64,000 nucleotides of DNA from Glaucostegus cemiculus (lineage: Eukaryota): assembly GCA_976551045.1 (NCBI GenBank), contig CDPCPM010000160.1, positions 992,001 through 1,056,000 of the forward strand, written 5' to 3'. Made by a program: the position numbers and the translations under genes. Positions 10,570 through 61,084 of this stretch are shown one piece after another (positions within the stretch are counted from its first letter, which is position 1; the number at the start of each line of letters is the position of its first letter). Under the pieces are notes generated by a model that was given only the letters and a program-made list of their open reading frames with translations, did no database searches and was not told the origin of the DNA.

Positions 10570-10667
10570 CTGCCGCCTCTAACGACCGACTCCAGTGAAG
10601 TGGCCTGGAGTTCAGGAAGCGCGGCTCAGTCTCCCAGTGTAACAGACACAGACGCTGCTCTCTTGAG

Positions 10668-16061: not shown

Positions 16062-16337
16062 AAGCCATTTCTAAGCCCACCATCTCAGCCAATAACACTC
16101 ATCCCGCAGAGCACAACGACGCAGTTGCTCTAACGTGCAATGCCACGGGGTCACCAACCTCATTTGAGTGGTTTCATCGAAATGAAACAATTCGCTCCGG
16201 TGATAGGACCGCCCTGACTCATGGCAATAAAACCCTCGTCATATCGGGAGTGTTGCGGACTGATGGAAAATTTGTGTGCCGAGTGTCTGATGCTTACAAT
16301 GAAAAGAGAAGTGATCCATATAATCTGAATGTTGCCT
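16062..16337 (+). CDS. Gene B exon 3, IgC2-like A1 domain (EAISKPTIS...LTC...W...FVC...SDPYNLNVA)
   Basis: 276 nt, acceptor TTTTGACAG, donor T|GTAAGT; CEACAM A-domain pattern KPxIxxNNxxPxExxDAVALTC. Confidence 0.9.
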
Positions 16338-16968: not shown

Positions 16969-17233
16969 ATGGACCGGAATCTCTAATCATATCAATCAGC
17001 CCAGAGCTTGCTTTATATCCTGCGGGATCAAATGTAACTTTTTCCTGTTCCGCTGTTTCAAACCCCGCTGCTCAGTTTCAGTGGAATCGCGATAATTCAA
17101 CACATATGAAAAGCGGGAATCAGCTAATCATTGCAGACCTGTCCTTGAATCACACTGGCAATCACACTTGCAAAGCTTTCAACTCGATAACACAGAAATC
17201 CAAGTGTGACAACAAGGTTCATTGTTGTTATAG
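16969..17233 (+). CDS. Gene B exon 4, IgC2-like B1 domain, frameshifted near its 3' end (265 nt instead of 264)
   Basis: GPESLIISISP...GSNVTFSCSAVSNPAAQFQW...TC; one extra base around 17196-17203 relative to paralogous exon 23596-23859; donor G|GTAGGT. Confidence 0.8.
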
Positions 17234-21526: not shown

Positions 21527-21802
21527 AACCTGTATCTAAGCCCGTTATCACATCCAATGACACCGACCCCGAAGAATACAATGACACTGTTAGTTTGACG
21601 TGCCACGCAAGAGGGACGGATGTTTCGTATCTGTGGTTTATGAACAATAAGACAGTTAACGCTGGCGGTAGGATTACCCTGAGTTCCAACAACAGCGCCT
21701 TGACTATCTCTGGGGTGCTGAGATCGGTCGAGGAATTCACCTGCGTTGCGTACAACTTGATGAATAAAAACACCAGCGATCCATTTCTACTGAACGTTCG
21801 CT
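21527..21802 (+). CDS. Gene B exon 5, A2 domain (EPVSKPVITSNDTDPEEYNDTVSLTC...FTC...SDPFLLNVR)
   Basis: 276 nt, acceptor TTTTAACAG, donor T|GTAAGT, open frame with C-W-C Ig core. Confidence 0.92.
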
Positions 21803-23595
21803 GTAAGTGCAACTGTGGTGGCCCGTTTGATCTCACTGACGTTTAACATTTCATTGTCCTATACAATGTATCATAACTCTGAGAGCTTGTACTGGATTTC
21901 ACTGGCATGAGGTTCGATGGAACAAAGTTAACCAATAATCCCATTGGTCTATGGGCAGCGGGGGTATATACTACCGCTCCTCTTCAGAGTCAGTTTAAAA
22001 TTTGTATCTATCTAACCAAACATCACGACCCATTGTCCATGGATCCCAGTCCAGCTGAGCTTCTCCCATTTTCTTTAACATCCCTGGGTCTCCTTTCCCT
22101 GCCCCAGTATGAATGAGCTTTAGTCGGTATGGAAACAATCTCTATTCCAGCCCACAAGCCTTCCGGCAACAGAAATACAACCTCTGCTCAATGGAACCTG
22201 TCGGCAAAACACAAGTGCATTGTCAAACTGACTTAGCAAATTAGCTGACCAAATGTTGCTGTGCTTAGAAATGATATAACGTCAATTTCACCCTCGTCTA
22301 CTTATCAAACTGAACATATGGAGATGGCGTCCGTTATTTTTCCCTTGGGGTCCAATTGTTGCAGTGATGCGTCGCATTCCTACATGGTACCGTAAACCAG
22401 CGAATCTTCGCTATCCTGATATTTCCACCGCAATTTCTGCGATCAGCCAGAGTTTACCGTTTCGTAACTAGTGGTATTGAACTGGGTTTGGTGTAGTTGA
22501 GGTTAAGAGGGGAAATTTGGATCATGTTGTCCCCAGAGAGGGTTTGAATTTCAAGGGTATGTATGTGCATTGTGGAGCGATGCTCTGCGATACTGAGAAT
22601 ATCACATCAATATTTAGTTAGGTATGAAATTATGTTCAAATTTTTTTAGCTTCAGTCTGATTGTTTCTCACATTTAATTGACCTCTGACCTCCACGCGAC
22701 CCTCGGCTCTATCAGCGTGGGCTTCTCAGCTGGGAAGTTCCAGGGGAAACAAGGGTTCGACAAGGAATTCTGGCATTGCCACTGACGTCTGAATCTCTTG
22801 ATGACGTGTTTAAGAAATTTCGTCCTAGTAGCCTTTGATTGGAGACTTCAGCTGAGAGTCAACCTAGCTGGTTGGTCTGGATTCACACCGAAGCCCAGAC
22901 CGGGTAATGCAGCGGATTTCGTTTCCGGGGGGACAGGGGGAAACGAGCTATGATTTTACCGCGGTCCGGTAGTTACCTGATTAACATTGGTGAGACTATT
23001 TTTGATGCACCAAAAGATGTCTCATGCCCGTCTCTATCAGTGACATAAAAGAGTTCGGCGTGGAACAATTATAGTGGTCACCTCACATCCCTTGGTATCT
23101 CGAGGGAAATTTAGGAGACACCGCAGGAACGGGCTGAGCGGTGTCAATTGTTATGCACGACCCAGAAGAGAACATCTCTGCTTCACGCTGGCGTATCATG
23201 GGAGGATGAAAAAAGAAAATGTTAGCCCTGTTTCCTTCGCAGCTGAGTCTCTCCAAGCAGCCGAGCATCTACCATGACCCAACATTACCCTCCCCTATCA
23301 AAGTTGCATCGTTCACTGTCCTCAGGCAGACGCCACAACAGGAATAATATCCAGATGACCGTAAACTTGTCTGGTAGAGCGGTTGGCACCACCGTTTGTG
23401 CAGGTGACCATCATCTGCTGGAAGGAGATTGTTTCCATACCGATTTCTTCTGAGGTGTGACTCGGTGGGAGCGGGTAGAATTAGTGTGGCAGTGGCTTCT
23501 CTCTGTTCAGTCGTTGTAGTGGCCAAGTGCCGGGATGGAGATCTGCTTTGGAGTCCTGGATGAAATTCTGCAAACGGACTGTGCATTTGTTTTAG

Positions 23596-23859
23596 ATGGA
23601 CCGGAAAATCTAACCATTTCCATCAGCCCAGACCTTGCTGCGTACGGTATGAGGTCAAACGTGAATTTTTCCTGTTCGGCTGTTTCGAACCCCGCTCCTG
23701 CATTTCAGTGGTATTTCAATGGTTCATCTCTTCAGACAAGTGGACGGCGCCTGAACCTTGTTGACTTATCCCTGAATGACACTGGCAGTTACACATGTGA
23801 GGCGTTTAACAATTTAACCAAAAGGTCGAGCTCAACAACACGAAACCTTGTCGTTTTAG
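23596..23859 (+). CDS. Gene B exon 6, B2 domain (GPENLTISISP...FSCSAVSNPAPAFQWYFNG...DTGSYTCEAFN...)
   Basis: 264 nt, acceptor TTTTAG, donor G|GTATGT. Confidence 0.92.
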
Positions 23860-25573
23860 GTATGTATTATGTCGAGGGGTGGTGGACGTTTCCGATTTCT
23901 GTATGTAAAAACAGATATATTGCATTGTTGTTAAACTATCAGCATCTGGTATGGTGTAGCCTGGTTTTGAGTGTGTTATTAGTAAGGTATTAGTATGCAC
24001 TCTTGGGCTTGGAGCGCTCGTTCATAAGATAATACCAAATAGGTCGAAGTTTGGTATGTGAGATAACAACTTTAATTGGCTCATCAACATCGATACTAAC
24101 ACTGTACTTTCTTTAACTAACTGTAAACAAAAGTTATATTAATGGGTTTGGAAAGTCGTGTGCGCGTCAGCAATTCTTCTCTGCGCTAACCTTTGTTTAT
24201 CCGTCATCATTCTCAATGCCAAATGCCCCTTGCCTGAATTTAATTGATTCGTACTTCCTTCTCCGTGTGGAACGCAAATTCCATTCCGTTGACATTGCAC
24301 CCTGGTTGGTTTTCATCTGTGGGACGGGGAACGTCCCTTGTTTAGTGCGTTACGGAATGTTTAAATGACCTGTTGGCTATTTGCGATCAAATGCATTGAG
24401 TACAAGTGGAAACTCTTCCTTTTGGTAGCGGTTCAAGGACAAGAGCGCTGTAGTAAAGTCTGGACACCTTAGACAAACGAAAGGGAGGGGAAAGTGGGTG
24501 GGCAGATGGGTTGAAACATATTCTACACCTGCGTGTTGATCACCATAGCTCGCTGCCGACACTGACAACGAGTTGAGGTTCGGACTGAGCAGAAGTAATA
24601 GCGACCAGGGAGTTCAGAATAAAATTGACACCGTCTGGAGAAATAATCAGTTGATGGGCCAGAGAGAGAGTGGGGAAGGGGGAGACTGGGTCATTCTTCT
24701 GGGGATTGATCACTCCATTGTAACTGCATTGTGAACCTGCACTTTCTCCTGATACCTTAAAATCTGGAACATCCTCGTTGAGTCCATTCACCACTGACAT
24801 TTTCGCACCCGCCTGTTCAAAGTGAGCCGCACACCGCAGAGAGGTCTGTCAGTTTTCGCGGGCGCAGGTGGGGCGAAGCAATGACAAGCACCACCTCTGG
24901 TCCCGGGGGCGCCGTCTCTGCCGACGTACTGTAGGTGCGCTGCACTGCCGTAACCACTGTCTTTTTCCTCGGGACGATATCTGGATCCCTTCGGTCCCCT
25001 ATTTCGTGTCCTGTCCATCCCGCCGAGTGGGAGATCAGATGGGGATTGTACGTTGGTGAATATTTTACTGGACACATGAAGCTTGGGTTATTGACACTGA
25101 GGCTGGAATCCGTATCCCATATGGTTACAACTCAGTTAAGTAAACTGATCGGAAATTAACCCGTCGCCATGGAGGTAACAACGAAATTACCAGATTCACA
25201 AGCCGAACAATGAAGAAATTCTGCTATTCTGACCCAGTCTGGCCTACAGGTGACTCCAAACACTCTGCTGAGCCTTGTCTGCTTGCCACGTTCTGGGAGT
25301 AGGTAGGCGTGGACAACAGGTGGCGGGATTGTCAGTGAGGTATTCAGACGATTGAATCAAGGTCGGAACTGCTTCTCTCCAGCGCGGTAACTGAATCTCC
25401 ACGCTTGCAGCAACACACGTTGTCTCGAATATTTTCAATCTTCTCCGTTCTTATCCTACAGAATACCACATCGCAGCTCTGGTGCATCGTTCATTTAAAC
25501 CGAATCCTTTTTTTCCCTCCAGACTCTCACGTTCAATTCTTGGGCACTAACCAACACCCTGTGTTTTCAACAG

Positions 25574-25849
25574 AACCTGTTTCCGAACCCAGTATTACAG
25601 CCAATGCCACCATCCTCATAGAGTACAATGACACCGTGGAACTAACATGCTTCGCAACAGGCACGGCGGTCTCTTATCTGTGGCTTGACGACAATAGCGC
25701 GATAGTTCCTGGTGGCAGGTTTGAACTGGGCGCCGATAACAGCACACTCACTAGTTCTGAAGTGTTACGAACAGATGGACCGTTCACCTGCATCGCATAC
25801 AACTCGATTAGCGAAAAGTCAAGCGAGCCGTTTGATCTCGAAGTTTACT
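25574..25849 (+). CDS. Gene B exon 7, A3 domain (EPVSEPSITAN...LTCFATG...DGPFTC...FDLEVY)
   Basis: 276 nt, acceptor TTTTCAACAG, donor T|GTAAGT. Confidence 0.92.
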
Positions 25850-27389
25850 GTAAGTGTCCCTCGAGATCAGTAGTTGCACCGTTTATTACCAGTCCTGCTG
25901 GGCACCAGGTTCTGGGAGAGGGGTGTTGCACTTGGGGATGGTGGGACAGTGATGACTTCATTGGACTAACACTCAAAGTACTGGGCAGTTAGATGACAGA
26001 CGTGTCCGGATCTACCTCGGCAGCTGGTGAATTTAAATTCACACCTGGAACTTCAAAATTAAAGACCAATGCCAGTAACGGTGACCAATAAACTACAGCG
26101 TTGTGGGAAAAAATCTGGGTCACTGATGTACTTCAGGGGAAGGAAATGCTCCAGATAACCCGGTCTGTTCTGTATGTGTCTCCAGACCCAACGATCAGGC
26201 TGACTCCTTACCAGCCCCACAGTTCAGAGGCAATTTGGGCTGTATATTACACGTTGGCACTGCTGGTGACGGCCACCTCCAGTAAACCAATGAGATAAGA
26301 AATCTCCTGGTGAGATTCCTGAACAATGAGGTCAGGCAGAGGCCCCGCCTGGTACACCAGGGACAATTTGTACCGCTATCATCGATCAAAAGTGCTTCAC
26401 TTTTAATAAGTACAGAGCAGGACTTGTAATAACATTTGCATTGAGTGGCGTGGACAACGTTGTGTCCCGTCTACTTTTCCTTTTGCTCCCTGTTAATTTA
26501 TGAGCTCCTTTCGACCCCATGCAATCAAATACATTAATTCTGTTTCAACACTAAGATTCTGATCCTTCTGTGGAACGATAAGTTCACGGATGCTTTTATA
26601 GACAAGGGGTACGAGGGTAGTCATTGATATTCTGGTCCAGTGCAGAATCAGCCAGGAACTCTGAAAATAATTCGACTCCCATGGAGTTGGGAACGATTTC
26701 AGGGCGAGGAAGTGCCAGAGCTAGTGGGGGACTGTCACCCTCCTGACGAAGGTGCAGAGAATCAAGAAGGTAGAAAGAGCCAGAGATCCATCACTGTGGA
26801 TGTGTGGGGGAAGTTACGGCCTCCCCGATCGATGGGTTGCCACAATCCCCAGTGGGTGTAACCTGAGTGGTCGAAGTTTACTTCCTAACATACACGCTGT
26901 TACACACTGGGTTTGGGACCGGTACTGAGACCCACCTTCACAGCAGGACTGGAATATAAGAAATTGGAATTTGAAAGCATTTGCACGCCCAAGTCGCACT
27001 GGGTCTTATTCCGCATTTGTTACAGTTTTTCCTAAGGTCGTCCAAGTTTTGATGTGCTGAGTGGCCTCATCCTAATAAGGGATTTTCTGTTCAGTAAACC
27101 ACCCAAAAGCCGCCAACCCCAGAAGTTACAAGGCGAGGTGTTCTGTGGAACTCTGTATTCCAGGTTAGAGAGGTGGAGACAGGTTCTGGGATGTGAGGCA
27201 TCTGTTTAACTACAGGTATATTTGACTTACTGCGTGTGGTTTATACACCAGTCCGCTCACCCGTGTGTAGGGATGGTGTTAGTGTGCACTCTCTGTGGTG
27301 GTGGGCTGCTCTCCCTCTCCTGCTCTGCTTTGTTTCTGCTTTCACTGTTCATGTAATTTACTGCCGTCGGTTTTGTGCGTTTGTTTTAG

Positions 27390-27650
27390 ACGGACCGGAT
27401 CGTCCAAATATCACTACAAACCCTGACTCACCTCCTTACCTGGCTGGAAGCACCGTCACTTTAACATGTTCCGCAGGGTCCAGGCCAGTCGCTAACCTGG
27501 ATTGGTATCTGAACGGTGACTTTCTACAAACTGGGCAGCAACTTATCCTTGACAATATTTCAGTGAGCAAGACGGGGAACTACACTTGTCAGGCATTTAA
27601 CAATTTTACAGAAAAGTACAGTGCCTCAACTCCAGAAATAACAGTGCTCG
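27390..27650 (+). CDS. Gene B exon 8, B3 domain (GPDRPNITTNP...LTCSAGSRP...WYLNG...TGNYTCQAFN)
   Basis: 261 nt, acceptor TTTTAG, donor G|GTATGT. Confidence 0.92.
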
Positions 27651-29019
27651 GTATGTAATACATTTCTCATTTTTTCTACCGACGAGAACACAGGGTGATG
27701 GTGGACACTCGGTTGTTGGACTAAGTGGCTGAAATTGTACAGATTATCAATTCAGTGTATTAATGTTGCATGCTGAACAACAAGGGTATTGATTAAGCAA
27801 CATCAGACTGCTTCATTAATTTGATAATCATGCATTTGTCCATATTGGTCCTCAGAAGTGGACATCCGCCTTCCAAGCCGGTACATGACTCCAGACACAC
27901 CAGCCTTGTGAACGCTTCACTGGCGCCAGTTTGAGTAGGAGGGGACAGTGCAATGGAGGGGCATTCGGAGACGAGCAATAAATGCCAATCATGTCCATAT
28001 CCAGTGAAGAAGGTTACAAGTAACATTCCAGGAGCCTCCAGTCTGGTTTAACCAGATCTTAGACACCTGCTGTACAAGTCAAGCCACCTCAGCAGTAACC
28101 CACACTGTATATACAGACCCGAAATCTCCATTGTCCATTATCCTCCTGTCTGACCCTGCGTGTTCCTCCAGTTTTCCAGCATCTGCAGTCTCTTGTGTTT
28201 CCATATCTACAGGCGGTTGCCCCGACTGCAATGCGGAAAGTTGCTAGTTCACTCCATGTGAATTCAGAGTGAATGCACTCAATTCTTTTGGCAAGTTGCA
28301 CCACTACTTCTTGGTCCCTCTTCCAACATCTTCCAAAGTTGAACTTGTTGCTCCTACACAATCCTCGGCTCTGCTGCCCGGGTCCTTTAAGGGTTACACA
28401 GAGACATACCTCGCTGCTTCAGCCGCCAGTCTCCTCTGTCGACAGTCCTCACGAGATGTCTCGGCTTGGCCAAGTCACCAGGGCAGCACTCCGTTTTCGA
28501 GAGACGGCCTGGCTTCACCACCACAATCCCGAAGAATGTCGGAATTAAAACAAACTAACTCCCATGGTACACCTGGAGACCGCACGGCCCATTTTCCCGT
28601 GCGAGCTCTTTGTAGAGTAATCCATCTCAGTCCCATTACTTACACTTCTCCTGCAGGCTATTCTCCAGCCAGTGCCGCCCAGATTAATTTCAGAGTCCAG
28701 AGTGACTCTATTTCTTGTTGGAGTGGCTCGTCATGCCCATTTAATACTAATTCCCTGCTTTAAAAGCATCCCTTACATTCTCATTGTATCGTGGTTGGTG
28801 CTTCTCTGGTCTCGGAGCTGTGATTCAGCAACAGCACCAGCTACGCCACTGTGACCCTCACCCCTCGCCACCACGCAATTTTTAAACCCATTCAAGTGAC
28901 AGTACCTTAGTACTTTTACGTTTTGTTGAGGCTTTTTTAGAATTGTTCAGAATTTCAGACTTGGCACATTATTGACGAAGATTAGGCACTCTGTACCTAT
29001 CAAGCAAACATTTGCCAAC

Positions 29020-33421: not shown

Positions 33422-33697
33422 AACCCGTGTCTAATGTCAATGTAGCACGCAACAATTTAAGTCCCGTGGAAATCAACGATACAGTTGTACTCATTTGTGA
33501 CGCGCAGGGTACTATTCAGAGACGAACATGGTTGAAAAATAACCTACCCATCCAGGAAAATGACAGAATATATACATCTTCAGATAAAGCAAATCTGACC
33601 ATAACCCGTGTTAACAGAACTGACACCGCAACATATAACTGTACCGTAAGCAATGATTACAACAGCGGCAGTGCAGCAATCTACATGCAAGTTAACT
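33422..33697 (+). CDS. Gene B exon 9, A4 domain (EPVSNVNV...LICDAQG...WLKNN...DTATYNCTVSN...MQVN)
   Basis: 276 nt, acceptor TTTACAG, donor T|GTAAGT. Confidence 0.92.
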
Positions 33698-33784: not shown

Positions 33785-34042
33785 ATGGACCGGAAAACGT
33801 TAGAATTCTGCCGCAGGGACCCGTTGAGGCAGATATTGGTTCACGTCTTACATTAACTTGTTCTGCCCAGTCAGTCCCCAGTGGTGAATATAAATGGTAC
33901 AATCGGACAAATCATCTACAGACAGGGCAGCAGTACACCATCGAGCCAGGAAGGTCGGTTGACAGTGGGAATTATACTTGTGAGGTTTATAACAACGTAA
34001 CCATGAAACGCAGCAGCCGCACCGTCGAAGTACTCGCACGGA
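33785..34042 (+). CDS. Gene B exon 10, B4 domain (GPENVRILPQGPVEADIGSRLTLTCSAQSVPSGEYKWYN...DSGNYTCEVYN...VEVLAR)
   Basis: 258 nt, follows an 87-nt intron, acceptor TTTGCAG, donor A|GTAAGT; not in the ORF track. Confidence 0.9.
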
Positions 34043-37417: not shown

Positions 37418-37544
37418 TTCGCAATGTTCACACTCCCGGAGGTTTGTCAGCTGCGGCGATAGCCGGGATTGTGATTGGCGTTGTTGCTGGAATTGCCATT
37501 GTGGGTGCATTCGCTGCCTGGTTTATCAAGAAATATGCAAGCAG
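37418..37544 (+). CDS. Gene B exon 11, transmembrane domain (IRNVHTPGGLSAAAIAGIVIGVVAGIAIVGAFAAWFIKKYAS)
   Basis: Polypyrimidine tract + CAG, 127 nt, phase 1 in and phase 2 out (AG|GTATAT); CEACAM1-like AIAGIVIGVVA and basic stop-transfer residues. Confidence 0.92.
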
Positions 37545-38799: not shown

Positions 38800-38849
38800 G
38801 ATGAAAGTTGCGGAGATACATCACGGGAGAGGAAAACCAGGAGTAAACA
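38800..38849 (+). CDS. Gene B exon 12, cytoplasmic exon C1 (RMKVAEIHHGRGKPGVN)
   Basis: Acceptor CTTACTTAG, donor A|GTGAGT, 50 nt; bridges phase 2 to phase 1 as required; positional equivalent in gene C (53059-53114). Confidence 0.7.
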
Positions 38850-40020: not shown

Positions 40021-40085
40021 ACACCTTGGCTACGGATGTTGCAGACTCGGCACAGACGTATGAAAATATACCAAGGAATCAAAAG
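40021..40085 (+). CDS. Gene B exon 13, cytoplasmic exon C2 (NTLATDVADSAQTYENIPRNQK)
   Basis: Acceptor TTCCCACAG, donor AAG|GTTAGT, 65 nt; clear paralog at 52558-52622. Confidence 0.88.
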
Positions 40086-40754: not shown

Positions 40755-40793
40755 AGTAGCGCTCACCCGACCGATGAAAACTCCACTTACATG
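40755..40793 (+). CDS. Gene B exon 14, cytoplasmic exon C3 (SSAHPTDENSTYM), first half of ITAM-like motif
   Basis: Acceptor CAACAG, donor ATG|GTAAGG, 39 nt, phase 0/0; paralog at 49616-49657. Confidence 0.88.
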
Positions 40794-41106
40794 GTAAGGG
40801 AATTGTGTTTTATTCTTTTGAGGTAAATACTTCTATTTTCACCGTTTCGAACCAAACCCAAACGTAAACCACTCTATCACGGGAACCCCCTTTAACACAT
40901 GGCAAGTTCACAGCTGATCCTATCTCCCACGTACACTTTCCGGCCCGATCCCCATGTACGCCGATTCACGCACTGTCCGAGAGCCTATCGGTCTCAGCGT
41001 GGAACACTCTCAACGTCTTCTCTATGATCTTATTATACACGTCTGTCAATGTCTGCTTCTGCTAATATTTGTTTGCGAATCATAACGACCTGTTCATGTT
41101 CAACAG

Positions 41107-41157
41107 GGACTGGTGTTGGAAGATCGATCACTTTACAGCGACCTAAGGAGGAATTAG
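41107..41157 (+). CDS. Gene B exon 15, cytoplasmic exon C4 (GLVLEDRSLYSDLRRN*), second half of ITAM-like motif and stop
   Basis: Acceptor TTCAACAG, TAG at 41155-41157; paralog at 49249-49320. Confidence 0.88.
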   Translation, partial: GLVLEDRSLYSDLRRN

Positions 41158-42299
41158 CGCAGAAAGTTTGTGAAGCGATACAAAATGTTGTTTAAAAAGG
41201 AAAAAATTGCATTCTTATTTCTGTCTTTGAAACATGGACTATAGAATGGACAGAAACCTGCCACAAGTTCCCTGCGACTATTATATGACAGACATCATAC
41301 AGTGTGGGCTGGAGACAGGTGCAGAGAGACAATGAACATTAGTGGAACAACTTTACTGAACCGGTCGCTGTGTAAAACTTACAACTTGACAGGAAATATG
41401 CACTTTCAGGACACCTGAGAAAGTTACGGAGCTTCCGTCGTGTTTACCTCCATCAGTTAAAACTCCACATACGTTCCGACTGAGAACCAGAACACCACAC
41501 CTGTGATGCAGAGGGATCGGTTGGTTTATGAATCGCGAGGATAACAAGACAACAAACCAAGGAAGTTTCCGCATCATAATGCCTCTATCATGTTTCCATT
41601 ACAACCGTTCTCCGTGTCACCCTCGGTTCTTCCAGTCTGTCTCGCTGTCATATCCCCTTCCAACCCTCGCCTGGTTGCCACTCACATTTCCCCCACATCA
41701 TTCCCGTACAAAGTGGATCCTCTCCCTTCTTGATGCAGATCATAGACTGGTCCGTCCTTGACCGCTTCCGCCGTCCACTTCCATAAACGAAACGAAGCGT
41801 CGAATTCAAATTGTTGGCGAACCAGACTCTGTGTTTCCATTGGCCAGGATCCTCTTAGAGCCGCTCATGTGTTGCCGCTACGCAGTCATTCCGGGTATAA
41901 TGACCCCATATTTTCTGTGTTTCCGAGGAAAAGATCGCACTCTCAGCGAAATCTGATGCAGCGTGAGTGATAATTTATTCAACACAACATCAACAGATAT
42001 TTTACTGCACAGTGTCCAGCCTCGCCTGTCTGGGCGCAGTGTTCTGACGTCTTTCTCGACAGCAATGAGAACTTGCTTTCATTACTCAGAACCATTGGAT
42101 GCTGGAACTTCCATCCTTTCTGTGTCCACCTTCCGACAAATGAGAAGACTGGAAATTCTGCTGCCATCCTCACTTCACCCTCAATGGGAGACACAGAGAA
42201 AAATGCGAATGTGAATGTCGCGTTTCCGTAAACGAAACTGGAAAGCACAACAACGAGTTCGCATGCCACAGGAAGTAAAGAGTTATTAATATAAGAAAA

Positions 42300-44180
42300 T
42301 ATGAATATAAGCAGTAGGGACAGGAAAAGGACATATGCCCTCATGACCCTTCTCCGCCATTCAATAAGATCGTGACTGATCTGGCCATGGTCTCAGCTTC
42401 ACCTACCTGCCATTTCCCCATAACCCTTAATTCCCCTACTGTGCAAAAATCTATCTAACTATGCCTTAAATATATTTGATGAGCTCGTCCCTCTGAATCC
42501 CACAGATTCTCTACTCTCGAGGAAAGCAGCTTCTCCTCACATCCGCCTTGAATTTACTCCCCCGAATCTTGAGGCTATGCCCTATAGTTCATGTCTCACA
42601 TATCAGTGGAAAAAAACTTCCTGACTGAGCACTCTTATCTCTCCCTTTCATAATATGTTTCTTTCAGATGCCTTCTTATTCTTCTGAATTCCAGGGAGTA
42701 TAGTTCGAGGCAATTCAATATCTCCTGACAGGCTGAGCCACTCAACTCGGGATCACTCCAGTGAAACTCCTGTGCACCGCCTCCAATGCCAGCAGATCTT
42801 TTCTCAACCACGGGGAGTAGAACTGCACGGAATATTCCAGGTGCCGCCTGACCAGTCCCGTGCAGAGTTCCTCCCTGCTCTTAAATGCAAACCCTCTTGC
42901 AATGAAAGCCAACATTCGATTTGCTATCTTCAAAATGTGTTAGAACTGCAAATCAACCTTTTGCAATTCATGCAATCACGTCCCCTTGCCCAAAGGCATT
43001 TTGCAATATTTCACCATTAATTAATAACCTGGTATTCTTCTTTTTCATCCTAAGTGGCTGACATCGCATTTACCAACATTGTACAACATCTGTCAGACCC
43101 TTGCCGACTCACTTCACCTATCGAGAACTTTCATTTCCTTATTGCTTGCTTAGTGGTTTTTTGTTGCTATGTAACGTTTTCATAAACTTCCAGTTTCCCA
43201 CTACTCTTGGAGACTTTGTATGCACGAGATTTCAGCTTGATGCCTTCTTTAATTACCTCAGTTTCTCAAGACTGGCTCCCACCCTCCCCCTTAACTGTCC
43301 TTGCCTTTAACGGGAATATACTTCGGTTCAGCACCATAAAATATCTCTTTGAAAGTCTTTCACTATTCCTCAATTATCCCATCATACAGCCTGCGTTTCC
43401 AGTCCTTGCTCATTCCGTTGTAGTCTCCCTTGTTCGGGGAAAATACAACGGTTTATGATTCAACTGGGGCACTCTCCAGTTCTATGTGAAATTCACTCAT
43501 GCAATGATCATTCTTTCCAAGAGAGTCCCAGACAACGTCGTTAATTTCAACAGGCTGAATGCACAGGAGCAGATCAAAGACAGCATTATTCCTCGTAGGT
43601 TCAATAACATGCTGTTCAAGGAAGCTCTTATGCATGCATTTTATGACGTCCTCCTAAATACTGCCTCGACCAAAATGATTCGCCCAATCTATGTGGAATT
43701 TAATGTCCCCATAGACACTTGCCGTTCCATTCTGACATGAATGAGATATTTCTCAATTTATTGCCTGTGCCACTGTCATGTTATTACTCAGTAGCCGAAA
43801 CACCACCGGCACCAGCGATTATTATCCTTTACTATTCCTAACTCTTCGCAGATGGACTCAATATTCTGCTCCGTTGATTTCATGGCGTCTCTCACTATCG
43901 GCCTGATCTCATTCTTATTTAAAAGCGCAAACCTACTTCCCTTTCAGATAAAGTGCCCTGACTCTCATTGTATTTTTTTATAATCCAGTAAATCCTTGTG
44001 TCCTTTGCATTTGAATTTACTGTACTCCACTCTCACTTTTCCCTTTACTAACTTTTCCTCTGGTCTCTCCTTTACTTCCCGCTTTCCTTATGCATGGATT
44101 CCCATCCCCCTGCCATATTAGTTTCAAACCGCCCCAAGAGCACTCGCAAATAATCCCCCGAGGATATTGATCCCCTCCGG
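42300..44180 (-). mobile_element. Internally deleted CR1-clade LINE (endonuclease to 3' tail remnants)
   Basis: ANRMLAFIARG...LVRRHLEYSVQF and FLEQHVIEPTRNNAVFDL...LGKNDH motifs. Confidence 0.88.
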
Positions 44181-45959: not shown

Positions 45960-47245
45960 TCTTTTTCAATCTTTTTTATTGATAACAAATCAATACAGAT
46001 TAAGATATATAACAACAATGTTTACACATGTATTATAGAAATATCAAGTAACTATCGTAGGTAATCTTAAAGAAAGCAATAAAGTTTGATACATATATAA
46101 AAGAAAGTTCCAACTCTCTCGGTTCATAAGTGTAGTGTAAAAGATAGAAAAGAAAAAGCTTTGTTATATAATTTTAAAAAAACACCAAATCAATTTTAAA
46201 AATCATAATATATAGAGTAAATTAAACCGAAAATGAATTTAAAAAAGAACAAATAAATAAAACTAGAAAAAAAAAAAACTGGGCTAAAATTTTCAATAGA
46301 AATAGAACAATATGATGTCGTCAGCTCCGTTTCTCTAAATTTAAAAAAAAAGTTAGAAAAGCGGAAACTGCATCATATGAAAGTATTGAATAAATGGACT
46401 CCAAATAGCTTCAAATTTAAGCGAAGAATCAACAGTACCACTCCTATTTTTTTCCAAATTAAGACATGATATAGTTTGGGAAAACCATTGAAAGGTGATA
46501 GGGGATATTGGATCCTTCCATTTAAGCAGAATGGCTCGTTTGGCCATCAATGTAACAAAAGCAACCATACGATTAGCAGAAGCAGGTAAATGGCCAGACT
46601 TTATCCATGGTAATCCAAAACCTGCAGTAATAGCGTGAGGTTGTAAATCGATCTTCATACATCTGAAATAATATTAAAAATGTCTTTCCAATATTTTTCC
46701 AAATAAGGACAGGACCAAAACATATGCGACAAAGAAGCCACGTTCGATTTGCATCTGTCACATGCAGGGTTTATACGGTCATAAAAACGAGCTAGCTTAT
46801 CTTTGGACATATATGCCCTGTGCACAACTTTAAACTGTATCAATGAGGATATATTAACTAAATGAAGAATTTTCTTCCAAGACTCTATAGATATAGACAT
46901 CTGGAGTTCACTTTCCCCATCATTTTTAATGTGACCGTAATGTGAATGTGACCGTATTTTCATAATTAAATCATAAACTATTGCTGCCAAGCCCTTCTGA
47001 TGGGGATTAAAACCTAAAATTTTATCAATGATTTCGTCTTTATAAAGAAACGGAAAGGAGGGTATAGTAGCGTTTAAAAAAATTTAATCTGCAAATATCG
47101 AACAAAATGTGATCTAGGTAAATTAAATTTATTATACAGCTGTTCAAAAGATGCAGAACAGTTACCAGTGAATAGATCACGAAAGCATACTATTCCCTTC
47201 CTTTTCCATAAGGAAAAATCTGTATCCGGTCTGGATGGTTGAAAA
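45960..47245 (-). mobile_element. 5'-truncated L1/Tx1-clade LINE (ORF2 C-terminus + 3' UTR)
   Basis: LIQFKVVHRAY...CDRC...LSHMFWSC..L..YW zinc-knuckle region, AKRAILLKWK, AATAAA with A-rich tail near 45960-45980, CCTTCTCCTC repeated on both flanks. Confidence 0.88.
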
Positions 47246-49248: not shown

Positions 49249-49320
49249 TCACTTGTCAAATGATGTTCCCACATACCTCTTCAGGTCGCTGTAAACGGAT
49301 CGATCTTCCAGCTTCAGTCC
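49249..49320 (-). CDS. Gene C cytoplasmic exon C4 (GLKLEDRSVYSDLKRYVGTSFDK*)
   Basis: Acceptor TTTAACAG; TGA at 49251-49249 if the internal AG|GTATGT is not used as a donor. Confidence 0.82.
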   Translation of the reverse strand, partial: GLKLEDRSVYSDLKRYVGTSFDK

Positions 49321-49615: not shown

Positions 49616-49657
49616 CATGTAAGTGGAGTTTCCATCTGGTGCATTCGTACTTATATT
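49616..49657 (-). CDS. Gene C cytoplasmic exon C3 (NISTNAPDGNSTYM)
   Basis: Acceptor TCTCTATCCAG, donor ATG|GTAAGA, 42 nt. Confidence 0.88.
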
Positions 49658-49884: not shown

Positions 49885-52085
49885 CATATGAACACAAGAA
49901 ATAAGGGCAGGAGTAGGCCATTTGGCCCATCGGCCCTGCTCCGCCAATCAATAACGTTGTGACTTATCCGGCCGTGGACTCAGCTCCACCCACCTACCTG
50001 TCCCCCATAACCCTGAATTCCCCCCAGCATACACAAATCTACCGAACTGCGTCTCACAGATGTTTGAAGAGACAGCCTCTACTGTTTCCCTTGGCAGATA
50101 ATTCTACAGATTCAGTACTTTCTGGGAAAAACAGTCTTCCCTCATCTCCATCCTAAATATATTCCACGAATATTGAGGTTATGCGTTATCGCCAATTCCA
50201 TGCACACTTTTATTATAGATAAGTCTTTACTTCGACACCTTATTGAACACCTTCTGGGAATTAAAGTACACAACATCCATCTGTCCCCTATATCCGCTAC
50301 GCTCATTATATCCTCAAAGAACTCCAGGAAGTTTGTCAAACAGGACATTCACTTCCTGAAACCATGCTAATGCAAACGCTCTTATTCATATGTCTCGTTG
50401 TTTCTTCATTGGAGTTAGCTTCAAGCATTTTCCTGACTACAGGTGTCAAGCCAACTGCCATATAGTTGCCAGCCGTTTGCTCACATACTTTTTAAACCAT
50501 GCGCCGAGACCTGCCCAAAGTCCAGAAATTTTGGTAAATTCTCACAACCCCGTCTACTATCACTTCCGCAATTTCTTTCAGTTCCCCGGGATACATCCCA
50601 TCAGGACCATAGTTCCTATCTGCCTTTCGGACCACGAGTTTACTTATCACTAACTCTTTACTGACAGTGAATGTATCGAGGCCCACCCCTCCCATCGCAT
50701 CCATAACAGCATTCTTTGCCATGTTAGACGTCTCCTCCAGCGTGACGACAGACCTGAAATAGCGATCCTAGGTCTTGGCCATTTCCACATTACCCAAAAT
50801 TAATTCCCCCTTCTGTCGTTTCGAGGAACCAACGTTCATTTTAGCCACCATTTACCGCTTTGTATAAATACAAAACCATTTACAATCTGTACCTGTATTT
50901 TGTGCCAGTTTTCTTTCATAATCTATCTTCGTTTCCTTATTGCTTGCTCGGTGGTTCTTTGCGACTTTTTAAAGATTACCCAATCTTCCAGTATTCCACT
51001 GCAGTTGGCGACTCTGTCTGCGTGAGCATTTAGCTAATGGCTTCCTTTATTTGCTCTGTTATCCAAGGCTGTCTCTCCGCACGCTCATTGTCGTTGCCTT
51101 TAACTGCAATATCGACTCCCTCGACCAACTAGATGTGCCCAGTCCATGTGGAAGTTAAGTCCTCGAGGACAAATGCCGTTGCATGCTAACATGCATCAGA
51201 TATTTCTTGGTTTATTACCTGTGCCACTGTCATCTTATCATTCCGTGGCCTACAGACAACTCCCACCAGTGCTTTTTTCCGGGAACCAGTCCTAACCTCC
51301 ACCCAGATGAACACAATACTCTAATCATTTGATTTCATACCGTTTCTGACGATCGGACTGACCTCATGCTTAACTGAGAGCGCTACCCTACCTTCCTAAA
51401 CTTTCTGCCTATCCGGCCGTATTATGTGAGTGCCTTGCATATTTAATCCCCAAACATCTCTACCCTACCACTACATTTCTGTAATGGCAATTAAATCAAA
51501 CCCCTTTCTACTGGTTTGTGCCACTTCACTGACCTAGGTTCGAATACTGTGGGCATTGACATAAAGTGACTTTTAGATTCTAACAAGCTTGGTGCCCTTT
51601 GCATTTGAATTTTCTCTATTCCACGTTTACTTTTCTAACATTTGCTTTACTCTCTGCATTGCTTCCCTCTGTCGTTCTGCATTGATTGCCATCCACCTGA
51701 CATATAACTTCAAACCCTCTGCAACATCGCGAGCAAGGACATTAACCCCAGTCCTGGCAAGATGAAGATCATTCGGTTTATTCAGGTCCCACTTTCCAAC
51801 AAACCGGTTCTAATGCCTCAGGTAATCTAAAACCCTCCCCACTGCACAACTGATCAAGCCACATATTTATCTAAACGGTGCTGAATGGCCTACCCTGATC
51901 AGTCACTGGCACTGATAGAAATCCTGACGTTATTACCTTCGAGGTCCTACTTTTTAACATAACTCCTTGCTCGCTAAATTCGGGTTTTAAGAAATAATCT
52001 CGGTTTATCCCTATATTGTTGGGACCTATGTGCACCATGACGGTGATATAGTGGTTGTTTCTGTCGACCAACTCGTCTTCGTAAC
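49885..52085 (-). mobile_element. Internally deleted CR1-clade LINE including ORF1 (esterase-like) remnant
   Basis: SCLTNFLEFFE, GPDGMYP..LKEIA, and VHIGPNNIG...LKSRTSKVITSG motifs. Confidence 0.85.
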
Positions 52086-52557: not shown

Positions 52558-52622
52558 CTGTTCATTCCTTGGGAAATTTTCATAGGTCTGCAATGCGTTC
52601 ACGGTGTTTGTGGCCAAGGTGC
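52558..52622 (-). CDS. Gene C cytoplasmic exon C2 (STLATNTVNALQTYENFPRNEQ)
   Basis: Acceptor TTTCCATAG, donor CAG|GTTGGT, 65 nt as in gene B. Confidence 0.88.
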
Positions 52623-53058: not shown

Positions 53059-53114
53059 TCTTTCCTCCTGAAGTGATGCTCGTGCCATATTTTGCCTGGG
53101 GCGGACCTTTCACC
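53059..53114 (-). CDS. Gene C cytoplasmic exon C1 (RVKGPPQAKYGTSITSGGK)
   Basis: Acceptor TTTATTCAG, donor A|GTGAGT, 56 nt, phase 2 to 1. Confidence 0.72.
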
Positions 53115-54796: not shown

Positions 54797-54908
54797 CTGC
54801 CAGTTTTCCTTGCGATGAACCAACCACTGATTCCGCTGATCAAACCCACACCAAGTGGACCAAGAACGATGCCCGCGATGGCGCCAGGGCCGAGGGTACA
54901 ACTGGCAT
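54797..54908 (-). CDS. Gene C transmembrane exon (DASCTLGPGAIAGIVLGPLGVGLISGISGWFIARKTG)
   Basis: 112 nt, acceptor CTTAACAG, phase-2 donor AG|GTAAAT; PGAIAGIV motif as in CEACAM1. Confidence 0.9.
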
Positions 54909-55563
54909 CTGTTAAGGGTGCTACCACACACAAGAAAGATCTATTTTATATCCGAAAAACAAATTCCTTACAGTAACAATGTGCATTTACATGGCGAACA
55001 ACTCTTTAATATTAATTTATCATCGTATATTTGAAATCGTATTTTGTGTATCAGAATGAAAGTGCAGGGAAGCTGGAGATACTATAGGAGACCAACACGC
55101 TGAACTGTGCTCGGAGTAAACCTAAGCCTCTCCTCTGTGATCAGTAGAAACAGCAAAGGCTCAGTAAACAGAACATCCAACAGTCTTTGTTCTGATGGCT
55201 GAGCTCACCCTCTCCTGTATCATTGCAACAAGCATAGCCCTCCCGTACTGTCACTTGTCTGGTTTGACCTGTCCCTGAAAGTCCACCAACGTTTTCGTCA
55301 AACAGGAATGTCACGTTCTCTGGTCTGGCCGTAAGTGGAGAGATTAAATCAATGTGGTTCTGGCGAATGGTGAAGTCTTTTTACATTCTCTCCACAACAT
55401 TCATCGTTCCTGACAACATTAAGAAGTCTCATAGCTGATCTTTCTAACTGATTATCCTTTTGGAAATGCGACGGGAGGACGAGAGTGGGATGTTCGGGAA
55501 ACAAAATGTCTGGGTCTTTAATCAGCGGGTGTGAATGGAACAAGCACAGAAACATTCACTCAC

Positions 55564-55821
55564 CTTGTGTGGTAACCTCAACAGTAAGCTTACTACTCCT
55601 ATTGGTTACGCGGTTAATAACCAGACATGTATAATTCCCACTGTTAACCGAGCTCCCTGACACAAGGGTGAGCTCCTGCCCTGTCTGGAGAGTAATGTTC
55701 CCGTTGTACCATGCGTATTCACCACAGGAGACTGACAGAGCAAAGCAAGTTAATGTCAGATTTGTTCCAAGATTTGCAACAACTGGAGACTGCGGCAGAA
55801 TTCTGACCTTCTCAGGACCAT
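55564..55821 (-). CDS. Gene C B-domain exon, paralog of B4 (GPEKVRILPQSPVVANLGTNLTLTCFALSVSCGEYAWYNG...NSGNYTCLVIN...VEVTTQ)
   Basis: 258 nt, follows an 81-nt intron, acceptor TTTTGTAG, donor G|GTGAGT. Confidence 0.9.
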
Positions 55822-55902: not shown

Positions 55903-56178
55903 AGTAAACATTCAAGTAGTTCTCTCCAGCGCCACTGTTGAAACTGTTGCTGACGACGCACTTGTATGTCCCTGCATCATTTCTGTTCACACTAATTATG
56001 GTTAGTTCAGAATTGTCGGCGGATGTGAATATTCTACTATTTTCCTGTATGGGTTGGTTATTTTTCAACCATGTCCGTTTCTGAACAGTGCCCCAGGCGT
56101 GACAGGTCAGTGCTACGGCATCGACGTTTTCCACTGGAGTAGAATCGTTGTTGAAGACAGTCACGTCAGACACGGCCT
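55903..56178 (-). CDS. Gene C A-domain exon, paralog of A4 (EAVSDVTV...ALTCHAWG...WLKNN...DAGTYKCVVSN...LNVY)
   Basis: 276 nt, acceptor TTTACAG, donor T|GTGAGT. Confidence 0.92.
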
Positions 56179-58357
56179 CTGTAAATAAAGTTGAAATGGA
56201 ATTTGTGTTACACTGTTGTCTTAACCACAACCTGTTCGTAAGAGGTGGGTATCGCCAACTCAAGACCATAACCAATCCTGGAATTCTGTCCAATTTGATT
56301 CAATATCCAACCAGATATTAGACTAAGCAGAACTCGAGTACAGTGTTTAAATATTGGCTACTGTCTGTTCAAGAGAGACAGACGTTTACTTGGTTATAGA
56401 TTGCTGGTCCTGGTCAACATTCAAAAATAAACAGGCAGCTCCCTTACTATGTTTGGACTCGCCTTATTAGTCCTATCAAAATGTATCACCTTACAGATGT
56501 CGGGATTAAATTCTATTAGCCGCTGCACATCACAGTTTACCAACTCATCAATAACAACATCTCACCCGCCTAATCTCCCACTTCTCAAAACAGCTAATGT
56601 CCAACATTTTGGATATAGCAGAAAGGTTCAAAACATTAATCCCTGTGGTGCATCGCTGGTCACAGACACCTAATCACAAACATTGCCCATAACGTACCCC
56701 GTGCCTTCTATCAACAAACGACATTTTTAAAGCATTGATAAAAAGTAAACCACATGCAAATTTATTCCATGTCCCGATGGCCCTATTGGAGGCAGTAATT
56801 TGTAAAGGCAAAATAATTCAGACAGTAGGTTTCAACGGACATATTATATTATAGAGATAAATCCAACTGGGAATTTCATTTGGAATGAAATCATGAAGAA
56901 CACTGGTGCAAGGTTCGAAAGTGTTGATTGCATTCACTATAGAGTGCAGTAAGAATCCCCACAGCATTAAAACCAGTGGTGGGTAACGCGTCTTCAGACT
57001 GGAGTTAATGCCATTTCCACCGTCAAACCCAACGAAAGAGTCTCTTGCTCCTGCCGATCAAGCTGTGGCTCCTGATTCACACATCCCATTCCAAATAAAG
57101 GCAAGGATACGATCCATGATTGTCGAGCTAAGTAATTGATGAAGCACAGTTATCACTTCGCATCGATACAAACCATCAAATGAGCTATAGCACAGAGCAT
57201 AGAAATAGTCCTTTCAGACTAAACAATCCGTGCTAGTCTCTAAACTCGCCCTAACTGTCTTCGTCCAAACGTCTCGGTGTAATGAAGGACTCCCATCGTC
57301 CTCAATGCTTTTCAACCTCTAAGTAAATGCCACGACCGGTGAAACCATCCTCACAAATCAGGCTCAAGGACGGCTTTTACCCTCTCCTGCAGGACTATTC
57401 AATGGTCCCCGAGCACAATAAGATGGACTCCTGACCTCAAAATCTTCCTCGTTATGACCTTGCACGTTATTGTCTCCCTGCACTGCACTTTCTATGTAGC
57501 TGTTGCACTTTATTCTGCATTCCGTTATTGTTTTTACTTGTACTGCCTCGATGCATTGTGTAATGAATTGATCTCTACAAACAGAATGCAAGGGAGGTTC
57601 AGCAGTTTACCTCGGTACTTGAGACAATAATAATAAACCAATAAACCACCACTTGCGGCACAGTTCTCTCCGGGCATGCAACATACTGACAATCCTCAAT
57701 TTCCCGTTGAGTTTCCTGCTGACTCTGCTGCTGACCGTGCCCAGATTATCTCCTCTCGAGAGGAGGGGGATTCATTCTCTCTACGTCCATTCCTTTCACC
57801 ATGTTAAATATTACAAGACGTCAACCTGGAACAGTAACGGTTTCTCTCTGCGCTTGGATGCCCGACGCGCTCTGCTTCTTGTGATCAGACAACTTATTTA
57901 AAAGACGCCCCTCGACCTGCTATTCACACCAGACAAGCGACCCATCCTTTTGCTGTAGCTCAGAACAGTTTGTTTGATCAAATCTATGTCCTCCGGCGAA
58001 GTAAATATAACGAGGCTTAGGACGAGAGTGAGGCGTCCATTTTTGGTTGTCCTGAGAGGCCAAACGAACAACTGCACTCATCGTTTCTCGGCCTCCGTCA
58101 CTGATCGGCTTTGTGATTTTCATTTGACGATGCACGAGCTGTAAGACGTTTGAGACTGTAACTTGATCAGCCAAACAAAACAAAAACAATTCCGAGTTGC
58201 ATTTTCTCAATCAACACACTCGTTCTTCAACATGCAGAATTCTGGATCGTTATACTGAATCGGTAGTCTGATCGGGTTCGGACGATTAGTTCAATCACAC
58301 TGTGCACCATCACTGTTCAACACGGGACGAGAGAAAGGGGAGAAACGGATGACCTAC

Positions 58358-58618
58358 CAAGCACAATGATTTGCATGGTTGAGGCGTTGTACCTTCCTGT
58401 CACATGGTTATAGGCCTCACAAGTGTAATTCCCTGTGTCCCACACAGAAATACTGTCAAGGATGAGCTCTTGCCCAGTTTGTAGATAGGCATCGTTCAGA
58501 TACCAGTCCAGATCAGCAACTGGACTCGACTGTGCAAAACATGCTGACGTGATGGTGCTTCCGGCAATGTGAAGAGCGGAGTCAGGGTTAGTGGTGATAT
58601 ATGGACGATCCGGTCCGT
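58358..58618 (-). CDS. Gene C B-domain exon, paralog of B3 (GPDRPYITTNPDSALHIAGSTITSACFAQSSPVADLDWYLND...DTGNYTCEAYN...MQIIVL)
   Basis: 261 nt, acceptor TTTGTTTTAG, donor G|GTAGGT; not in the ORF track. Confidence 0.9.
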
Positions 58619-58988
58619 CTAAAACAAACGCACAAAATGGTTTGTGGTAAACTGCACGAATGGGAAATACAACACCGAAGCAGAGAGAGAGAGGAACAGG
58701 AGCCCATCACCACAGAGAGTGCACACCAGCATGGTTTCTATTCGTGCAAACCGAGCCCGAGTTTTATGGTCACCGTTACCGAGACTGGGATTTTCATCTT
58801 GAAGAACCCGATTTCAACAAAGTTCCTAAGGGAGATTCGGACAAGTCTCCCATTCTCCTTACAGTAGTTCTGGCGTTGGTCTCAAGAGGGCATCACTGTG
58901 CTACTGTCCCACATTCCCTCTCTTGCAACCCCGTGCCCAGCAGGACTGGTGTTACACTGTGGAACAATTGATCTCTAGGGACACTTAC

Positions 58989-59261
58989 AGTAAATATTGA
59001 GATAAAACGGGTCGCTTGTCATTCCGCTGATCAAGTTGTCTGCGCGGCAGGTGAACGGTCCATCTGCCCGGAACACTCGAGGAACAGTGAGTGTGCTGTT
59101 ATCGGCGCTCAGTTCAAACCTGCCACCTGGAATTATCGCGCCATTGTCTTCAAGCCACACATAAGAGACATCCGTGCCTGTTGCGATACATGTCAATATC
59201 ACGGTGTGGTACTCTACCACGCTGGTGTCAGTGGATTGAATAATGGCTTTGGAAACAGGCT
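58989..59261 (-). CDS. Gene C A-domain exon, paralog of gene B A3 (EPVSKAIIQSTD...LTCIATG...DGPFTC...SDPFYLNIY)
   Basis: 273 nt, acceptor TTCCACAG, donor T|GTAAGT. Confidence 0.92.
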
Positions 59262-59554
59262 CTGTGGAACTCATTAGCTGAGTTAGTGCACAAGATCTGA
59301 AGACGCAAATCTAGAAGATTTTGGATTCTGTTTCAAATCTGAAAGATGAATTTGCACGTTGACTGATCTATAATGCAGAATCAGAAAGCATTAAAATATT
59401 TATGTTAGACCGAGAGCGACATATCCGTTGAGCTAGGTATTGCGATGCAGTTACTGCGCTGGAGACAGGTCACATCTTTCTTCACCCAGTGACCTGAATA
59501 TTATTTTAATTCACTCCCCCGATGAGGTGCCAATAGTCCCAGAGTCACAGTGTT

Positions 59555-60390
59555 ATGCACCTCTACGTAAGCATGCCCTTCCTCCCAAAGCGTCCATGCC
59601 GACCAGGTTGTATGGCAGAGGCTTTCCCATTAGTCTTCGAAACGTCTTCAGAGCTTTGTAATTGTACCCACCTCCACCACCTCAACTGACAATTTGTTCC
59701 ACAGACCAGCCAGTCTCTGAGTGAAAATGCTGTCCTTCAGTTCCTTTACAAATCTTTCCACTCTCACCTTAAACCGATGTCGTTAACTTGTAGACTCCCC
59801 TACCCTGCAGACCACCCACCTCACCAACAACCCTCCTGGTTTTATATATGTCTATAAAGTCACACCACAAGTCTCCCGGGCTCCACGGTAAAGGTCTCAG
59901 ACTATCCAGCTTCCTGACTGAAGGCCTTCCCATACCGGTGATCTCCTGAAAATCCTTTCTGTACCCCTTCCAGCTAAAGGACACCCTTCCTATAGCTGGG
60001 CGACCGCAACTAGACATAGTATTCCAGGTACGTTCTCATCAATGACTTGTAAAATTGTAGAATCACGTTCCAACTTTCAGCACTGACCGATAAAAGAAAG
60101 ATCGACAAGCGCCTTTTTCACTAACCTGTCTGCCAGTTTCAGGGACTATGTAGACGTTCACCTTGGTCTCGCTGTTCTCCAACACTGTCCAGGACCTGAA
60201 ATTCACTGTGCAAGTCATGCCTGTTTAAATTACCAAAATGCAACACAGTGCATTTGAGTTCAATTCCATCTGCCTTTCCTCGGCCGATTACTCCGGCTCA
60301 TCAGAATCCTGTTGTAATCCAAGATAACTTCCTTCACTGTCCACATCACCAACTTCTGTGTCATCCGCAAATTTACTAATCACCCCCATA
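59555..60390 (-). mobile_element. Decayed CR1-clade LINE 3' fragment
   Basis: ISKFADDT encoded at about 60358-60381 on the minus strand, plus CR1 3' tail. Confidence 0.8.
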
Positions 60391-61084
60391 ACAGCTCTTT
60401 CTATCTCTGTTAGAAAGCAGAGCCGCTGTTCACCTCACATTCGCTCTCCGCACTCGCACCTGCTGACCTCCTGCATTTGTCTCACAGATAAAGTCTGCAG
60501 GCATGCCAGACAATCGCTGCCGAGGACGCCAATCCAAACCGGATGAACTACTCCAACAGCGAGCGATGGATCTTGGTGGCAGCGCTCGGAGAACTGCCGA
60601 ATTCTCTCAGACTGCACACAAACCATAGGACCGATTGAACCTCAGTTATCATCTTTGCCAGAAGTCAGTGTGGAGGGAAGTATACCGTGCCCACGGCACG
60701 TCAGCAAAGACTGCACCCAGAGGCAGAAGTGGGGCTTGACATTGCATCGCTCCACCCGAAGCACTCTACCAACTGCGCATGCGCAAATTGACAAACATCT
60801 CTGCTGTGAGCACCTCACTTTGAACAGTCGGATGCAGTTGTCGGGAGTGAATGGCTTCAAGAACAAATTCCAGTTGTTAATTCATCAGAAGATAAATCAT
60901 TCCTAGAGCTGCTGCAGTTCACTTGTTGGGCATTCGGTGCTTCAACATTTGCTCACTAAACAAAAATGTTTCGGTCAGTCCCCTTCCCGACACCTTCTTC
61001 AGAATTTCTGTCCATGCCTTTGGAAGCCCGAAGTGACCCTATTTCCATCCCCCAATTTTTAATTCAATGTCTCACCCAAACATA

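Follow-up and report, generated by a model that had tools for sequence, protein, structure and literature searches.

Predicted CEACAM-family receptor genes with a two-exon ITAM tail in the ray Glaucostegus cemiculus

The window, by which we mean the whole 64-kb stretch of DNA analysed here, contains a gene on the plus strand (gene B, 10668-41157) that consists of a leader, an N exon, four IgC A/B pairs, a transmembrane exon and four cytoplasmic exons, a second gene on the minus strand (gene C) with a tail of the same kind, and the leader and N exon of a third gene (gene A) placed head to head with gene B. The features are as follows.

10668-10719, plus strand: gene B leader exon
10890-11207, plus strand: gene B N exon, a cysteine-free IgV domain (0 Cys)
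16062-16337 and 16969-17233, plus strand: gene B IgC exons A1 and B1
21527-21802 and 23596-23859, plus strand: gene B IgC exons A2 and B2
25574-25849 and 27390-27650, plus strand: gene B IgC exons A3 and B3
33422-33697 and 33785-34042, plus strand: gene B IgC exons A4 and B4
37418-37544, plus strand: gene B transmembrane exon, phase 1-2, hydrophobic core uncharged
38800-38849, plus strand: gene B exon C1, 50 nt, phase 2-1
40021-40085, plus strand: gene B exon C2, 65 nt, phase 1-0, carries YEN
40755-40793, plus strand: gene B exon C3, 39 nt, phase 0-0, cag acceptor, ATG followed by a gtaagg donor, ends in Y-x of the first ITAM module
40794-41106, plus strand: gene B C3-C4 intron, 313 nt, phase 0, GT-AG, inside the first YxxL
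41107-41157, plus strand: gene B exon C4, 51 nt, cag acceptor, x-L of the first module, 7-residue spacer, YSDL, and TAG by read-on
58989-59261 (A), 58358-58618 (B), 55903-56178 (A) and 55564-55821 (B), minus strand: gene C IgC exons
54797-54920, minus strand: gene C transmembrane exon
53059-53114, minus strand: gene C exon C1, 56 nt, phase 2-1
52558-52622, minus strand: gene C exon C2, 65 nt, carries YEN
49616-49657, minus strand: gene C exon C3, 42 nt, phase 0-0, ends in Y-x
49249-49320, minus strand: gene C exon C4 to the read-on stop, with a GT donor following base 49277
5653 (leader) and 5114-5431 (N exon), minus strand: gene A, head to head with gene B

The alternating A and B IgC exons of gene B are all of phase 1, an Ig domain was found in 14 of the 14 candidate exons scanned in the window, and the four tail exons of gene B (50, 65, 39 and 51 nt) follow the transmembrane exon with intron phases of 2, 1, 0 and 0 and with GT-AG sites. 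Gene C has the order A-B-A-B-TM plus tail, likewise with phases 2, 1, 0 and 0 and GT-AG sites, and its frame is open throughout the part that lies in the window; its leader and N exon were searched for in the 64 kb and not found. Gene A is related to gene B over the whole 5' region, since 5007-5765 (minus) and 10556-11314 (plus) are 89% identical over 760 bp comprising 5' flank, leader, intron 1 and N exon, and the two N domains are 86% identical. Further gene A exons were looked for in 1-5100 and none was found, the tail of this gene lying outside the window. The differences between the N exons of A and B are unevenly spread, the first 162 nt containing 19 and the final 156 nt 3 (intron 1 differs at 21 of 170 positions), and the near identity of the 3' halves suggests that partial gene conversion may have occurred between them. 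Positive selection between the two N exons was also considered and is unsupported (pN = pS = 0.07). In addition, there are decayed repeat copies at 42299-44130 and 49886-51716, which are 70-75% alike, and remnants of ORFs at 46353-47083 and 59500-62800, which look like pieces of LINE retrotransposons, and none of the markers LIPE, BCL3, CNFN and PAFAH1B3 was recognised among the ORFs of the window.

Central to this analysis is the ITAM of the cytoplasmic tail, which in gene B is divided between exons C3 and C4 and which in the joined frame reads YMGL-x7-YSDL with the intron between Y-M and G-L. A first-pass annotation had placed a phase-0 intron inside the first YxxL of gene B, and both its exon borders and the YxxL-x7-YxxL frame are confirmed. 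The matching layout that it had claimed for gene C was indeed recovered when the window was compared with itself, as a second copy of the split ITAM on the minus strand (49616-49657 and from 49320) with an intron of 295 nt. As predicted from the genomic DNA, the two-exon layout with its border inside the first tyrosine module is therefore present in both genes; both furthermore satisfy the classical spacing YxxL/I-x6-8-YxxL/I with an x7 spacer, and both carry in exon C2 a YEN (YxN) motif, 20 (B) and 21 (C) residues before the first ITAM tyrosine. It should be mentioned that a lone copy of such a motif would be weak evidence, since a relaxed form of the pattern (Yx ahead of a GTRAG donor, followed at a distance of at most 2 kb by an acceptor and x[LI]x6-8Yxx[LI]) occurred at least once in 66 of 200 order-2 Markov resamples of the window. 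The window itself holds two, against a mean of 0.365 in the resamples, 7 of which reached that number (7/200). What supports the predicted split ITAM is the paralogous copy, together with gene models of orthologues whose joined tail is of the same kind.

The tails of B and C are identical at 47 of 108 residues, and exon by exon the amino-acid identity is 5/18 in C1, 12/21 in C2, 7/14 in C3 and 12/15 in C4, with DNA identities of 61% (C1), 64% (C3) and 83% (C4). The earlier observation that the two ITAM exons are better conserved between the genes than C1 is therefore clear for C4, whereas for C3 as a whole the difference is only modest. In the tail exons pN is below pS, on few sites. In the ectodomain, exons A3/B3 of gene B (25532-27800, plus) and the first A/B pair of gene C (58203-59301, minus) are 78-81% identical, the later pair 70-72% and the transmembrane exon 57%.

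Much closer matches to either tail are found in Pristis, where model P0005 (XP_051901533.1) is identical to tail B at 87 of 108 residues (81%) and model P0031 (XP_051901461.1) to tail C at 99 of 110 (90%). Exon C3 of gene B matches residues 559-574 of P0005, and C4 matches the same model at 14 of 15 residues. Judged by these alignments P0005 and P0031 are the orthologues of genes B and C, respectively, and since both matches far exceed the B-C identity given above, both genes have been kept since before the Pristis split, and the ray from which the window derives is a near relative of the sawfish. The joined ITAM tail is thus already contained in the automatic annotation of Pristis, where both models are named 'CEACAM1-like' after the inhibitory CEACAM1 even though the tail is of the ITAM type.

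In one respect the reading of gene B is less straightforward, since exon B1 (16969-17233, 265 nt) breaks the frame near its 3' end and carries H instead of the Y of the YxC motif. With all exons included the first stop falls at codon 308, and leaving out B1 alone does not rescue the gene, since a stop then arises at 216; the gene is open only if A1 and B1 are skipped together (770 residues) or if A1-B2 are skipped (590 residues). Furthermore, position 41151 in exon C4, where the Pristis P0005 model has a donor, reads GA in gene B, whereas gene C keeps GT. It could thus be argued that gene B is a recent pseudogene, or encodes a secreted truncated form, that its tail exons are leftovers and that only gene C makes an ITAM receptor. 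We find this unlikely, however, since the other 14 exons of gene B are all open, since the 590-residue frame is 82% identical to P0005, whose exon set is just that, and since pN is below pS between the tail exons of B and C, on few sites. The break in B1 could moreover be an assembly error or the mark of a decayed, skipped exon pair as well as of a young pseudogene. The altered donor at 41151 has a further consequence, namely that the tail of gene B stops at 41157 and is not joined to a candidate fifth cytoplasmic exon at 42668-42728 (plus), so that it consists of four exons, whereas P0005 is modelled with five cytoplasmic exons and without A1-B2. This candidate exon has a good acceptor and matches the last 20 residues of P0005 at 80%. 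As a separate observation, exons A2 and B2 of gene B (21527-23859), which are without counterpart in the Pristis orthologue model, are 77% and 71% identical to a Mobula birostris protein with a different, ITSM-type tail (P0088), and B1 is 74% identical to it, the likeness of A2/B2 hinting at a possible exchange of exons between activating and inhibitory genes.

The ITAM tail is by no means confined to Pristis and Glaucostegus, but is found in computed gene models (XP_/UniRef), predicted rather than experimentally proven in their splicing, of 12 chondrichthyan species, namely seven rays (Pristis, Narcine, two Mobula species, Hemitrygon, Hypanus and Rhinoraja), four sharks (Scyliorhinus, Pristiophorus, Heterodontus and Carcharodon) and the chimaera Callorhinchus. 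The N domain of gene B matches 28 proteins, all 28 from rays, of which 26 are named CEACAM- or PSG-like and 13 carry the ITAM tail, the best match being 73% identical (Pristis pectinata). A profile search added 143 new proteins, among which 42 have a transmembrane segment and a short tail and 12 of these 42 an ITAM, while a word search with the tail alone returned four proteins, all from rays. The three tail tyrosines are invariant in an alignment of 12 ray sequences, and YEN is located 19-24 residues upstream of the ITAM in the 15 tails that were looked at. In a set of 200 proteins, many of them isoforms or unrelated multi-Ig proteins, 37 show the YxN-plus-ITAM pattern, and the facts that six of the 200 diverge directly after Y-x and that three are without the C3 segment imply identical exon borders in other species. 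The chimaera protein P0185 (Callorhinchus milii) has an additional upstream YxxL seven residues from YENI, and its tail may therefore hold two ITAM-like units. A model from Mobula birostris that is named as a NACHT/LRR protein (P0025) has a CEACAM N domain 60% identical to the query, the fusion being either genuine or a product of the annotation.

A related question is whether such a tail is activating at all. The receptors might be spliced as read here while the tail serves mainly as an endocytic or an inhibitory/switch module, with two SxYxxL motifs recruiting phosphatases or with Yxx-phi sorting signals, or while the proteins mediate epithelial adhesion and not uptake. Indeed both modules of B and C also match the loose ITIM consensus SxYxxL ([ILVS]xYxx[LV]), and the residue at -3 of the first tyrosine is N in both genes, with acids at -4/-5. 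This fits the consensus D/E/NxxY described in PMC4536121 but fails the stricter D/ExxY of PMC2832619, and an acidic D/E at this position is found in just three of the 15 relatives inspected; furthermore, many motifs of this kind are termed endocytic or ITAM-like in the CEACAM literature, as in PMC2832619 and PMC13278318. Against this stand the spacer of seven residues in 15 of 15 tails inspected from 12 species, although these tails were selected for the pattern, the two-exon split, which is described as a hallmark of the ITAM in PMC4536121, and the fact that rays also possess a distinct ITSM-type relative whose tail is unrelated. A mainly endocytic, inhibitory or adhesive tail seems to us unlikely.

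Concerning the family to which the genes belong, the predicted IgV model of the gene B N domain has a pLDDT of 94, and the V-set match of the domain is below the cut-off. CEACAM N domains are IgV domains without a disulfide, and the N exon of gene B is free of cysteine. When a profile of 12 ray proteins was compared with the PDB, the top three matches were CEA and CEACAM1, over stretches spanning the N and A domains, and CEACAM1 of elephant and of tree shrew is among the 150 best matches that the same profile retrieves. The first two cytoplasmic introns of B and C have phases 2 and 1, and C1, with its 50 or 56 nt, leaves the same remainder on division by three as the 53-nt Cyt1 exon of CEACAMs (PMC2110893). 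That the genes belong instead to another IgV-plus-IgC family of the CD2/SLAM kind and have acquired their tail by convergence is very improbable, since, although the lone N domain matches CD48, CD2 and CEACAM8 in the PDB at similar weak E-values that do not separate CEACAM from CD2/SLAM, and although the fold search with its model gives generic IgV domains (PD-L1 and others within 1 Z unit, and no CEACAM in the best 50 rows), the profile ranks CEA and CEACAM1 first over two domains, the A/B exons alternate in phase 1, C1 has the CEACAM-like remainder and the second cytoplasmic exon carries YxN. From their predicted structure genes B and C are thus most probably CEACAM-family, ITAM-type receptors of a ray, each of the three alternatives (endocytic or inhibitory use, a pseudogenised gene B, a non-CEACAM family) being less likely than this reading.

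The ray CEACAMs with the unrelated tail, which bears TxYxxI/V (ITSM-type) motifs (P0020, P0076, P0088), are of further interest with respect to pairing. The ITSM-type N domain of Mobula hypostoma is identical at 94 of 105 residues (90%) to an ITAM-type N domain of the same species, but at just 68 of 105 to the ITSM-type N domain of Hemitrygon, whereas over their final 90 residues the ITSM-type proteins of the two species agree at 74 positions. This likeness, seen in P0076, P0022 and P0020, resembles the signature of paired receptors and stands out clearly in just a single lineage. In the N-domain tree, which is mostly unresolved, with three of 21 inner branches starred and two selected rows without N domain left out, a starred branch (99/97) joins the two Mobula ITSM-type and two M. 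hypostoma ITAM-type N domains. The Hemitrygon ITSM-type N domain has a best match within its own species of 77%, slightly above the 73% found with Hypanus. In Mobula and in Hemitrygon the two types of gene lie on different contigs, and in Glaucostegus no inhibitory partner gene is visible within the 64-kb window. No description of paired CEACAM receptors in cartilaginous fishes was found among the titles and abstract openings of the open literature covered. In Xenopus, according to PMC5112662, paired receptors have converted N exons in opposite orientation.

It was initially pointed out that the position of the intron matches that in FCER1G and DAP12. The two-exon split is indeed common to them, but the likeness is uninformative, since the classical ITAM is according to PMC4536121 in every case spread over two exons, the border lying within the first module (D/E/NxxYxxL/I-x7-YxxL/I) and the match is hence a general property of ITAMs, and since a phase-0 split of the first YxxL is moreover typical of CEACAM ITAMs, as described for dog, opossum and Xenopus (PMC2110893, PMC2832619, PMC5112662). 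In other respects the genes differ from these molecules, since FCER1G, TYROBP, CD3 and CD79 are signalling subunits with an acidic transmembrane residue (PMC4536121), whereas B and C encode Ig receptors in which such adaptor-type features (an acidic transmembrane residue, a short ectodomain) are absent and a multi-Ig ectodomain is joined to an uncharged membrane span and an ITAM of its own. That neither transmembrane segment has a charged residue had been noted from the start and holds for the hydrophobic cores of both genes, and together with the intrinsic ITAM it supports the accompanying proposal that signalling would be independent of an adaptor.

The closest published likeness is found in the marsupial ITAM-type CEACAM1-related genes and CEACAM20, which are described in PMC2832619 as having four cytoplasmic exons, a YxxL-x7-Yxx(L/I) motif with a phase-0 split and a YxN motif in exon 2, all as in B and C, although the marsupial motif is ExxY where the ray genes have NxxY. 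The group 1 ITAM Ceacams of Xenopus (PMC5112662), described in frogs only, share the phase-0 split and the YxN motif, and the N domains most similar to the Xenopus Ceacam ones are, as the same paper reports, found in cartilaginous and in bony fish. Reptiles have three exons and an extra tyrosine motif 17-21 residues before the ITAM (PMC13278318). Cartilaginous-fish CEACAMs have been reported by way of skate ESTs (PMC3628338, PMC4079198), and PMC3628338 shows ITAMs in teleost homologues, while its abstract speaks of an ITAM-bearing architecture from cartilaginous fish to humans. No description of ITAM CEACAM tails of sharks or rays was found among the titles and abstract openings of the open literature covered. 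The split ITAM itself is already textbook knowledge for CEACAMs, and what the present analysis adds is the occurrence of ITAM-type CEACAM genes in a ray and the wider taxonomic reach of the tail.

As to function, we consider it likely that B and C encode activating ITAM-type CEACAM receptors, that is type-I membrane proteins acting in the manner of CEACAM3 and CEACAM4. The sequence itself provides the IgV N domain (in B), the IgC A and B domains, the uncharged transmembrane segment and four tail exons with YEN and the split ITAM. Human CEACAM3 and CEACAM4 are N-domain-only receptors. They serve as the functional model here in that an ITAM or ITAM-like tail is intrinsic to the CEACAM (PMC7026191), with the differences that CEACAM3 ends in YxxM and is largely a one-tyrosine receptor, whereas gene B encodes as many as eight IgC domains together with the extra YEN. 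By analogy with these two proteins, the receptor would be clustered on a phagocyte by a multivalent ligand (probably a microbial adhesin to which an inhibitory CEACAM1-like relative binds as well), Src-family kinases would then phosphorylate the tail of the receptor, and the phosphorylated ITAM would recruit tandem SH2 domains of the Syk/ZAP70 type together with single-SH2 effectors. The phosphorylated YEN would recruit an adaptor of the Grb2 type, in line with the YxN specificity given in PMC2832619, and the outcome would be uptake and killing without FcR-gamma or DAP12. It should be noted that CEACAM3 recruits Syk while Syk is dispensable for uptake (PMC7026191), and absent Syk binding alone would hence leave an activating role possible.

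The presence of the ITAM tail in ray, shark and chimaera suggests that the activating CEACAM-type receptor may be very old. More tentatively, and with rather less than even confidence, we propose that the activating tail, with its YxN exon and two-exon ITAM, and pairing by N-domain conversion with an ITSM-type CEACAM were both already present in the last common ancestor of jawed vertebrates. If so, the ITAM tails of marsupials, CEACAM20, Xenopus and reptiles would have been inherited from one ancient set of exons and not acquired independently, whereas PMC2832619 suggests that the marsupial cytoplasmic exons were acquired independently of the eutherian ones. Sharks and rays would likewise be engaged in a decoy arms race with microbes of the CEACAM1/CEACAM3 type. 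Given a single origin in jawed vertebrates, such an arms race would be more than 400 million years old. With a complete activating tail now traced through rays, sharks and a chimaera, and with a signature of paired receptors in Mobula, both the age of the activating CEACAMs and the question of a single or a repeated origin of the mammalian tails become testable, and many of the shark and ray genes annotated as 'CEACAM1-like' are by their predicted tails genes of the activating type.
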